In this document: in pieces, positions 3,326 through 64,000 of the stretch
Layout: each line of letters starts with the position of its first letter
How positions within the stretch are numbered: position 1 is the first letter of the stretch
Assembly: GCA_964016885.1 (NCBI GenBank)
Contig: OZ024754.1
Coordinates: 13,454,001 to 13,518,000, forward strand
Origin: Eledone cirrhosa
Taxonomy: Eukaryota
Direction: 5' to 3'
DNA length: 64,000 bases
Position numbers and translations under genes: made by a program
Notes under the pieces: model-generated
What the model was told of the DNA's origin: nothing
The model's database searches: none
What the model saw: only the letters and a program-made list of their open reading frames with translations

Positions 3326-3421
3326 CAAAATTTGTTTTATAAATAGTGACATAACCGTGGAAAAACCGTGGAAAACAACCTTGATGGTTGAAAATTCGCT
3401 GGATAGATAAAACAAATTTTG

Positions 3422-24949: not shown

Positions 24950-25014
<65 letters not shown>

Positions 25015-25018
<4 letters not shown>

Positions 25019-25204
25019 AACAAGTAAGACCCCGACGGCTGAGCTCAAGCCGTTTCGACGGCTAATTCTGTACGAATTAGCCGTCGAAACGGCTTGAGCT
25101 CAGCCGTCGGGGTCTTACTTGTTCCTATTACCCACTCTACTACCCTAAGTATTGAGTACTTTGGTGCGTTATGGTCCACCTGGTTCCTTACCACATTTCC
25201 TTCG

Positions 25205-26884: not shown

Positions 26885-27073
26885 ACGGAGGAAATGTGGT
26901 AAGGAACCAGGTGGACCATAATGCACCAAAGTACTCAATACTTAGGGTAGTAGAGTGGGTAATAGGAACGAGTAGGACCCCGACGGCTGAGCTCAAGCCG
27001 TTTCGACGGCTAATTCTGGACTAGAATTAGCCGTCGAAACGGCTTGAGCTCAGCCGTCGGGGTCCTACTCGTT

Positions 27074-27077
<4 letters not shown>
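26883..27077 (-). mobile_element. Family F fold-back element in (TA)n
   Basis: Reverse-complement homolog of 25015-25207. Confidence 0.85.
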
Positions 27078-27108
<31 letters not shown>

Positions 27109-60213: not shown

Positions 60214-60606
60214 TGCCCAATTAATAACGATATAAGAATTATATCGACATTATATAACTTTTTAGTCCAGCCAGCGACTTGAAAACTCTGGTACAAACAC
60301 TACACTTGTAACAATTATTGACACATAGTGCTGGGCCCATGGTACCATATGACGACAAGTGCAGAGAGATCTCCAGATATAAAGCAATGCCTGTGCCGTG
60401 AAGCTTTTATAGTGAGCAAAGGCACTGCACAAAGCCAGTCCCACTCTCTTAACCAAGATGATATTTACCAAAAAGAAGAACAAGTCAACATCATTGGATA
60501 CCATCAGGGTTGCAGGTGTTATATCAGAGTTTTCCTTCTCCTAGAATTCTGCCTTGACAAATATATATACAAATATATATGTATATACATACATATATAT
60601 ATATAT

Positions 60607-60707: not shown

Positions 60708-61853
60708 ATAATCTATAAAGCTCAGTGTGTGGTCATGCTCCTTTCTTATAGAAATCTACGATATAGAATTTCTTCAATTGAAATTTACAATTCAGTATTC
60801 GAAATAGCTTCGATTGCGTCTTGGCACAGATAATTTTTTCAATTTCACCCACAATTACGCAAAAAATAGATAAAACTCAATATTTTACGATTTTTCTCTG
60901 TCATTTAAACTGCTAAACTCTTTCCACTACCATTCAAAATCTATACAACTTCATACTTTCTGCTACTTTCACTTTCCAAGCTTGATGGTGATACTGTCCG
61001 TTTTACTCTCTCATATCATCTGTTTTTCCTCTAACTACAACCTACACATTTTGCTACTTTCTCTTTTATACAGATACATTTATTCAACAACAAGCGATAA
61101 ATCTTTTTTAAAACCTCTTTTCCAAACGCATACAAACACACACTCACTTCAACAACAACAACAACAATCTGCCTTTTATAGATAATGATAAACAATAATA
61201 TCCTCTATGAGGTCACTAAACCTGCTAGAAACAGCAGCTAACTCTCCCCCATATCACACCCCTCCCTAATGTCTTAAATTTAGAAAACATATCTTCTATG
61301 AGGTCACTAAACCTGCTAGAAACAGCAGTTAACTCTCCCCCATAACACACCACTCCCTACTGTCTTAAATTTAGAAAACACATATCCTCTATGAGGTTAC
61401 TAAACCTGCTAGAAGCAGCAGCTAACTCTCCCCTATATTACACACTCCCTACTGTCTTAAATTTAGAAAACACATATCCTCTATGAGGTCACTAAACCTG
61501 CTAGAAACAACAGCTAACTCTCCCTCATATCACAACCCTCCCTACTGTCTTAAATTTAGAAAACACACAGACAACCATGCAGAACAACTCCATCGCAGCT
61601 CTGTTGTTCGGCTGGCATCGTCTACGCGCGTGTTGCGCAAGTACTGTGAAACAATAAATTTCAACACTTTTTTGCACAGAGATAATATCCATAGGCAAAA
61701 CTACAATTGTCACTGCTGGCGCAGCTCCTGCTTCCAGGTCTGCAATTCATTCACCCAGTGCCTGGCAGACAAAAAAGTGCTGCCATAAAATGGGTGGTGC
61801 AACCTAACTTTGGTAACATAATGACCCCGAGCAACGCCGGGCTTTAATGCTAG
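60708..61853 (+). mobile_element. Probable non-autonomous Helitron
   Basis: 3' hairpin cccgagcaacgccggg followed by CTAG-t. Putative 5' a-tctataaagc start. The extent is inferred. Confidence 0.5.
61200..61566. repeat. ~92-bp tandem repeat, 4 copies
   Basis: ctatgagg at 61205, 61296, 61389 and 61481. Confidence 0.9.
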
Positions 61854-61907
61854 TATATATATATATAAATGAAAAGTATAGAAATTATTATGAGCAAGAA
61901 GCACACA

Positions 61908-62294: not shown

Positions 62295-62541
62295 TATATA
62301 AACAAAAATGTCTGTCTCTATGCAGGCGATGCATTTCCACAATTTCCATCCGATTTTATTCAAATATGATTTATAGATTATTTAGCTCCCGATGCATGTC
62401 AACATTTAATTTCAATCTTTCTCTCCGCTAAAATACAGGAGTTCTGGGGCCATTTAAAGACGGCCATGTTAAAAAGAGAGGGTGGGTTCTTTATTTACAG
62501 TGGCGAAAGGTGTGCCCGGCAACGACGGGCTCTTTTGCTAG
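62295..62541 (+). mobile_element. Probable short non-autonomous Helitron
   Basis: 3' hairpin gcccggcaacgacgggc followed by CTAG-t. Confidence 0.5.
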
Positions 62542-63177
62542 TATCTAATAAAAGGGGTTAAGGATGAGGTTTGGGAGGAATTTAGGTGCTGTTTCTAGCA
62601 GTTTTAGCGCCTGTGTAGAGGTTTCCTTCGCTGATATTTCTGTAAATTTCTGAATCGACCATTGTAGTAATAAACAGAGACTTCCGGTGTGGTGAGATCG
62701 TCAACGAACTCAGCGTTAAACAGATGAAAAGATGTTCACTTCATTTCATCCATTGATTCGTTTACGTATATTTTACACATCCTATCTCAATACCACTCCA
62801 CTAAACTCCTTGATAAACAATCGTGGCTTTCAATGCTGTTCAAGACAATTTGAATGAGATAGTAAAAATCATTGTCAGCAACTATTTCAGAAAGATGTGC
62901 TATGTGTACTTTAATGTTCGGTTTATTTCGTGAGATATATAGGGAGCAAACATCAACACCATCTTGATAATATTTTACTATGTCATAAATAGAGGAATGG
63001 AGTCAACAGATAGAAGGTTTATTGATCGAGATTGTCTGCAAGGAGTTTTGGCACATTATCTCCATTTCTTTATCTATCTGTCATTTTTTTCCTTCTCAAT
63101 ATATAATCATATGTTTGCGTTTTATCTGTCCGTATGTGAATACTTATACATACATATATGCAAAATATATATGATAA

Positions 63178-63233
<56 letters not shown>

Positions 63234-63639
63234 TGGCTGCCAACTCGTTTTCGAGTACGGCCACAACTTTATATCCATGTAGGAGAACCCCTACCAATGC
63301 GCTGAACGAGTGTGACTTTTTAGTCCAGCCAGCGACTTGAAAACTCTGGTACAAACACTACATTTGTGACAATTATTGACACATAGTGCTGGGCCCATGG
63401 TACCATGTGACAAGTGCAGAGGGATCTCCAGATATAAAGCAATGCCTGTGCCGTGAAGCTTTTATAGTGAGCAAAGGCACTGCACAAAGCCAGTCCCACT
63501 CTCTTAACCAAGATGATATTTACCAAAAAGAAGAACAAGTCAACATCATTGGATACCATCAGGGTTGCAGGTGTTATATCAGAGTTTTCCTTCTCCTAGA
63601 ATTCTGCCTTGACAAAGGCTAAGGGGTCATCTCTCCCAG

Positions 63640-63733
<94 letters not shown>

Positions 63734-63758
63734 ATATATATATATTTATTGTATAGAA

Positions 63759-63811
63759 GAGCTTCTACAGGACTAGTACTGTTTCATTCAGATGAAATCT
63801 TCAGGAAGCTC
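63759..63811 (-). ncRNA. Type I hammerhead ribozyme (family A)
   Basis: Inverted copy of 63871-63923. Confidence 0.85.
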
Positions 63812-63870
63812 TGTATTCAGAAATTTACAGAAATATCAGCGAAGGAAACCTCTACACAGGCGCTAAAAAG

Positions 63871-63923
63871 GAGCTTCCTGAAGATTTCATCTGAATGAAA
63901 CAGTACTAGTCCTGTAGAAGCTC
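63871..63923 (+). ncRNA. Type I hammerhead ribozyme (family A)
   Basis: GAGCUUC CUGAAGA UUUCA-UC-UGAAU GAAA CAG-UACUAGUC-CUG UA GAAGCUC. Stem I is 7 bp. Confidence 0.88.
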
Positions 63924-64000
63924 CTTCTATACAATAAATATATTTTACTCTGCCATGTATTGAGTACCTTACTTACTGTGGTTATCCCCGACTCAACTCG

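Follow-up and report, generated by a model that had tools for sequence, protein, structure and literature searches.

An inverted copy of nearby chromosomal DNA between two head-to-head ends of a likely Penelope-like element in Eledone cirrhosa

Introduction

From where does the DNA that separates two inverted retroelement ends derive, and at which step is it put there? This question is raised by a locus in Eledone cirrhosa, at which 54 nucleotides separate two outward-facing hammerhead-like motifs close to the end of a 64,000-nt stretch (here referred to as the window; forward strand of contig OZ024754.1, positions 13,454,001 to 13,518,000, assembly GCA_964016885.1). Passages of the literature describe insertions of EN+ Penelope-like elements (PLEs) as an inverted, 5'-truncated pLTR with a tail on one side only (PMC8557442, PMC3846280, PMC11167929), and the later steps in the formation of the inverted ends are called unresolved in sections of two of these papers (PMC8557442, PMC11167929). 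When a filler can be traced to local DNA, its strand and side are set; such a filler can tell two-ended priming followed by end joining apart from fold-back by self-priming, and it may account for the capture of host DNA by PLEs. Here, we describe such a filler, which was probably copied in while broken DNA ends were rejoined. The architecture of the insertion is known, and inserts copied from local templates have precedents in L1, in R2 and in the ordinary repair of breaks; the present locus is an example in a new element class. It is one event, which proves little, and the family concerned is very abundant here.

The spacer and its chromosomal source

The spacer (63815-63868, +) is the exact reverse complement of positions 62602-62655, as stated in the initial annotation; all 54 of 54 nt agree and the match extends on neither side (BLAST E 5.6e-24; about 10^-26.8 exact matches expected by chance over both strands of 64 kb). 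The 54-mer occurs only at these two places within the window, its longest local exact match is the full 54 nt, and 0 of 300 shuffles did as well. Exact non-simple repeats of at least 40 nt with unrelated flanks number 11 in the window: seven lie in one tandem region, three are copies of hammerhead elements, and the 54-mer pair is the sole one outside both. The distance of 1.2 kb given earlier is close for donor to spacer (1,160 nt), whereas the donor lies 1,090 nt from the left insertion junction.

The direction of copying can be read from one edge. The 92-nt tandem unit (61198-61567) is homologous to the donor edge, with 13 of 20 positions agreeing inside the 54-mer (shuffle p 0.00035), and because this homology crosses the 62602 breakpoint at the donor and not at the recipient, copying proceeded from donor to spacer. 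Judged from this edge and the 54/54 match, 62602-62655 is the source of the spacer, which upholds the proposal that the spacer was copied from nearby chromosomal DNA. The donor itself remains intact, and the template is both nearby and low-copy (genome-wide uniqueness being judged by read depth). We propose that the spacer is a scar without function. An origin as a spliced upstream exon was rejected, since neither donor edge has a GT. The region around the donor also contains two hairpin-plus-CTAG ends (61820-61856 and 62505-62542), which we take to resemble Helitron 3' termini; the four 92-nt tandem units (61198-61567) lie upstream of the first, and the donor starts 60 nt past the second.

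Architecture of the insertion

The spacer is flanked by two outward-facing type I hammerhead-like motifs of the same family, referred to as family A, with cores that start at 63804 (-) and 63878 (+); that both end at the 5' edge of stem I had also been noted in the initial annotation. On the left, a (TA)n-rich microsatellite (63641-63744) forms the flank and the inferred insertion target, and other family A copies likewise end in (TA)n or (CA)n. The left arm (63745-63816, -) is a 5'-truncated family A end with a predicted cut at 63766/63765 and a short-tail 3' end about 20 nt past it. The right arm (63871-63937, +; predicted cut 63916/63917), likewise 5'-truncated, continues into the family A tail (63938-64000, +), a long-tail end that reaches the window edge and matches 43087-43033 (91%) and 2247-2298 (83%). 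The long tails of paralogs stop 85 and 89 nt past the cut site and the right arm runs for at least 84 nt, from which only a few bases are likely to be missing beyond 64000; contig loose ends run into microsatellite behind 63991-63997. The layout is short-tail arm, spacer, long-tail arm: two Penelope-like ends, each bearing a hammerhead-like motif, stand head-to-head within (TA)n. The same long/short layout is found in the pair at 43030-44318 and in four copies of another family.

The two arms are identical at 72 of 73 positions, with a single 1-nt gap, and are separated by a 59-nt centre, composed of the 54-mer, 3 nt on its left and 2 nt on its right. They are nevertheless asymmetrical: at least 60 nt of tail in the right arm have no counterpart in the left, which in turn differs from the right arm by 1 nt in stem I and by an additional 3-5 nt at its 5' side. 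These 5' bases align ungapped with paralogs, just two of them being independent of the donor, and on the ungapped match to the 5' flank of the paralogs at 43152 and 44249, positions 63815-63816 would be a 2-nt microhomology between left arm and spacer. At the right junction, microhomology with the spacer is 0-1 nt. Stem I is fully paired in both arms (10 bp on the right, 8 bp on the left), with a compensated base difference between them (63869-63870, 63923-63924), which could reflect natural covariation or result from the right cDNA folding back over 2-3 nt; the two junction bases themselves (63869-63870, +), which extend the right arm's stem I so that it closes to the last base, are correspondingly either a natural variant or the product of such a fold-back.

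Truncation at the ribozyme cut site was rejected, as the whole core 5' of the cut is kept in both arms. Ahead of its core, family A has a TATA-like box and a pyrimidine tract (44210-44243, 43160-43192), the terminal CAG of the tract falling on the 5' edge of stem I. The tract resembles a splice acceptor and may explain why truncations cluster at this edge; in the Drosophila element, D. virilis Penelope, the intron end maps to the 5' edge of stem I according to a section of PMC4209133.

Identity of the element

Family A has six copies in the window. Of the six, three stop 15-21 nt past the predicted cut and two stop 85-89 nt past it; each of these ends lies in microsatellite. Both arms have stems I and III and the core expected of a type I hammerhead (CUGANGA ... 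GAAA ... UH), and in an alignment of the six copies 94.8% of cells are paired, two stem I pairs are changed on both sides and the 4-bp stem III is invariant; the stem pairing statistic (5 of 500 shuffles) is weak, the six rows being related. The stem III loop holds a 6-nt palindrome in both arms and a 4-nt palindrome in older copies, and in PLE hammerheads a palindromic loop at this place serves dimer folding, as set out in parts of PMC4209133. The same source, in the parts seen, describes a conserved G10.1-C11.1 pair that closes stem II; in all six family A copies it is replaced by U.U, followed by a 3-bp stem, and because of this U.U pair a stricter hammerhead descriptor missed the family. 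Rfam gave no hammerhead match on either arm, and by its core and stems only the motif is classed as a hammerhead, i.e. a predicted ribozyme.

Neither a reverse transcriptase (RT) nor a GIY-YIG open reading frame was found, with 0 Pfam matches in the six frames of 43700-44240, the one place in the window where family A extends far in the 5' direction, and over 18 frames the single Pfam match was a C2H2 finger at 63232-63638. The element is likely a non-autonomous PLE, its membership resting on architecture because no RT or endonuclease open reading frame was found. This architecture resembles that of EN+ PLEs in its head-to-head inverted ends with a hammerhead-like motif in each, the tail on one side only, the AT-rich or (TA)n target and the two preferred 3' ends; the inverted 5'-truncated copy with a one-sided tail is seen in the present pair and in 43030-44318, and the end pile-ups are family-wide. 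It differs in the lack of an open reading frame here, in the length of the tail (about 65-70 nt here versus 30-40 bp there) and in its centre, which here is host DNA with an identified local source. The family A arms are head-to-head rather than head-to-tail and the window contains no tandem family A array, and a non-LTR retrozyme, defined by two or more head-to-tail hammerhead units, was rejected on the orientation of the arms; the insertion is likewise not of the kind described as tandem retrozymes in the portion seen of 10.64898/2026.07.22.740005. A metagenome match to the family core (L001) proved to be a chance match, without hammerhead core or tail, and a scan of viral contigs with the family core gave 0 matches.

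Representation in public reads and contigs

The public runs compared were X14 and X15 (one sample, contigs), X17 (RAD) and X18; X1-X13 hold <0.2 of the words. The best runs share at most 73% of the words of 62300-64000, and may therefore represent another haplotype or individual. Depth over the spacer (63817-63861) is flat, at 8.03 in X14 and 7.93 in X15, and therefore one contig covers the spacer in each, most simply read as the donor locus; X17 has 1-2 reads on the spacer and X18 none. Arms and tail together reach a summed depth of about 2x10^4 to 1.5x10^6 at 85% likeness in X14 and X15, a summed contig depth that is not a copy number. The flat depth of about 8x, together with the lack of another match in the window, speaks for the uniqueness of the 54-mer. 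That it might be a normal part of family A, a possibility raised in the initial annotation, was rejected on two counts: the other four window copies have different 5' flanks, and depth falls about 10^4-fold or more from arms to spacer.

These data also bear on whether the 54-mer came from an identical repeat copy elsewhere in the genome, the nearby match being coincidental. The homology of the donor edge to the 92-nt tandem unit 1 kb away points to an old repeat family, which counts in favor of such an origin, but within the 54-mer the homologs differ widely, agreeing at only 12-13 of 20 positions, depth is flat at only about 8x at 85% likeness, and because no abundant near-identical copy of the spacer is seen at that likeness a distant donor is unlikely; we consider this origin very improbable.

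An assembly or library chimera would be a further way to arrive at the observed sequence. Neither junction is among the rows listed for the four public runs, and in X14 and X15, where the spacer is on a single contig, no arm-spacer junction occurs among the joints, loose ends and contig pieces listed (contigs drop rare variants); PLE inverted structures are, moreover, known to trouble assemblies, as stated in part of PMC8557442. Against this, overlaps of 0-2 nt at two junctions leave an assembler nothing to join on, both outer ends are at family-typical sites, the window is without Ns and has its long microsatellites resolved, and the runs possibly represent another haplotype or individual, with polymorphism expected for an insertion that carries zero substitutions. 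We regard a chimera as quite improbable. In the assembled sequence the 54-mer copy is confirmed as real, as a single case known from the assembly alone.

Proposed mechanism of spacer formation

In the model that we prefer, for which belief and doubt are about evenly balanced, the 54-mer was made during integration, when a cDNA end folded onto its own resected chromosome strand and then joined a second cDNA. By analogy with PLE biochemistry, the element endonuclease would cut both strands in (TA)n, and reverse transcription would be primed by both 3' ends, beginning at the short-tail start on the left and at the long-tail start on the right, with both copies stopping at the 5' edge of stem I, where the arms indeed end. 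The bottom strand of the left end would be resected by at least 1.1 kb, and the 3' end of the left cDNA would anneal to the top strand thus exposed, at 62655, over about 2 nt. Either the RT or repair synthesis of the Pol theta type would then add 54 nt. Finally, with 0-1 nt of microhomology, this lengthened end would be ligated to the right cDNA. The copy is inverted, matching the prediction for a same-side snap-back, and the left arm, taken as top-strand cDNA, runs on into the complement of the donor top strand, which belongs to the same molecule.

Several features favor two cDNAs. Because of its extra tail, the right arm was not copied from the left, and the left arm is probably not a copy of the right, considering the stem I gap and the 3-5 nt of 5' bases that match paralogs ungapped. 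Since each arm carries sequence absent from the other, the junction of two independent cDNAs is the better reading, and the earlier suggestion of one polymerase passing from element to chromosome and back to element is, as worded, unsupported. In addition, family A has two preferred 3' ends and the pair 43030-44318 has the same layout. Among the 12 joints listed, other head-to-head junctions of the family have fillers of 2-22 nt, one of which is a tail duplication. Sections of PMC11167929 describe a PLE protein that cleaves the two strands and extends each of them, favors AT-rich DNA and is predicted to be dimeric, its RT starting at two sites, which define the tail; a precedent for resection of about 0.9 kb with fold-back inversion is given for an L1 site in part of PMC11702581. 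Other observations count against the model: microhomology of 0-2 nt is not above chance, a donor 1.1 kb away is far compared with the typical distance of at most 15 bp for L1 templated inserts, and small differences between arms, which may have arisen post-insertion, occur in other inverted pairs too. The recurrent palindromic joint described below, the failure to find an RT or GIY-YIG open reading frame in the frames scanned, the lack of arm-spacer junctions among the joints listed and the finding of a local host donor for one of seven tested spacers only also weigh against it. Homology-guided landing is unsupported, as 634 of 2,984 sites do as well for the predicted cDNA continuation.

A single continuous strand could in principle give a similar structure, if the right long-tail cDNA jumped to the donor bottom strand and then onto itself, building the left arm. 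A single RNA would suffice for this, self-priming is proposed for PLE inverted junctions in a section of PMC3846280, and a palindromic joint recurs in family A. The left arm, however, has the 1-nt gap and 3-5 nt of paralog-like 5' bases that are absent from the right, and the donor bottom strand would have to be invaded as a duplex; with a 5' match that rests on two bases independent of the donor, the one-strand version is disfavoured, and we consider it improbable. The palindromic head-to-head joint, which has a 4-nt overlap, is seen at 63804>63880 in X14 and 63798>63874 in X15, with a depth of about 505 in both runs, about 60 times that of the spacer, and marks either a place within the hammerhead where fold-back recurs or a palindromic unit that has been amplified. 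Its recurrence suggests that self-priming fold-back also makes inverted arms in family A.

Palindrome centres are prone to breakage. A near-perfect palindrome could have landed first, its centre being cut later as a hairpin or cruciform and patched from 1.1 kb away, in which case the spacer records host repair and not integration. Half of the inverted pairs in the window (8 of 16) have centres of <10 nt, which speaks for such a sequence of events, and inverted templated inserts with flanking microhomology form without a retroelement (PMC8421209, in the part seen). Both arms, on the other hand, still reach the stem I edge with little asymmetry, and spacer and arms are about equally young with 0 substitutions each, which fits one event and cannot order two. 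We regard such later repair as unlikely. That the spacer is a direct footprint of integration, as originally suggested, is plausible; repair of a palindrome centre would look much alike.

Lastly, the RT might have jumped onto a nascent host RNA across 62602-62655 instead of using DNA. The left cDNA would have the same orientation if copied from a plus-strand transcript, some L1 insertions derive from two RNA templates (PMC11702581, in part) and template jumps are proposed for PLEs in a passage of PMC3846280, but neither donor edge is a splice donor and Pfam gave no match in the six frames of 62545-63170. The prospect of an RNA template is accordingly slim, and templated extension on DNA, in the preferred two-cDNA model, is the reading carried forward here.

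Comparison with known templated insertions

Among PLEs, the spacers of Pen1 and the gaps between solo pLTRs hold captured host DNA, with no local donor named in the sections seen of PMC3846280. In the open-access literature we found no report that traces a PLE inverted-junction filler to a local donor, which does not establish absence from print. For L1, 22 instances of locally templated insertions, typically <250 bp and within 15 bp, are described in part of 10.1101/2024.08.27.596794, and excerpts of PMC11702581 describe three insertions with nearby genomic sequence and three with inversions. These are similar to the present case in that a short, exact copy of nearby DNA lies in a retrotransposon insertion, with little microhomology and a model of resected-end fold-back. 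In contrast, the element here is Penelope-like, the insert is flanked on both sides by cDNA, in inverted orientation, instead of marking the border of cDNA and target, and the donor is 1.1 kb away, in an insertion that is germline and fixed in the assembly. The 'snap-back' 5' junctions of R2/PRINT likewise involve a cDNA 3' end that primes DNA-templated synthesis on itself or nearby target before joining, although in engineered single-ended TPRT at rDNA in human cells (both according to the part seen of PMC11371274). Insertions made by Pol theta, SD-MMEJ or MMBIR share the inverted, same-side template copy at a repair junction, but need no retroelement, and templates were sought within 100 bp (PMC8421209, in the portion seen).

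A more general proposal, which we put forward as doubtful, is that PLEs prime from both ends of a kilobase-resected double-strand break and that the centres of inverted pairs record a geometry rule genome-wide. If true, the filler is inverted when the donor is on the side of the priming arm and direct when it is across the break, and many mini-insertions would form a natural read-out of PLE inverted-repeat formation and host DNA capture.

Other inverted pairs in the window

Sixteen inverted centres, taken from BLAST self-matches, were examined, about 12 of them with whole or partial hammerhead motifs, judged partly by eye. Apart from the eight centres of <10 nt, one of the 16 is 1,017 nt long and lacks a local match, being made up of microsatellite and of what is presumed to be element sequence, and seven were tested for donors within 3 kb. 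Two of the seven tested spacers beat all 300 shuffles, 63815-63868 and 31538-31581, the match of the latter being to the 5' portion of a different copy of its element, and a local host donor was thus found for 63815-63868 only (one of seven). The spacer at 31538-31581 and the segment 32060-32103 are two copies of another hammerhead family whose first base is identical in position, lying about 14 nt ahead of the core, and this shared start suggests a fixed RNA 5' end.

A 305-nt piece recurs in direct orientation 3 kb upstream (60257-60561 and 63315-63616; 97.7% identical, with four substitutions and a 3-nt indel). It is an internal part of a short LINE-like 3' fragment (63232-63640, -) with a C2H2 finger (Pfam PF00096, E 1.5e-4, below cut-off), and its copy at 60257-60561 abuts the 5' side of another hammerhead element (core 60209, -). 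This copy is possibly a second local templated insert, from across the break, and an independent copy is equally possible. Four young palindromic insertions of one family (25014-25128, 26962-27078, 42238-42341 and 54097-54207) are cut inside the hammerhead and have differing centres of 3-6 nt and a one-sided tail. Finally, the spacer at 54417-54452 is a near-palindrome and that at 3341-3406 has an internal direct repeat, and both look like products of iterative end-joining synthesis.
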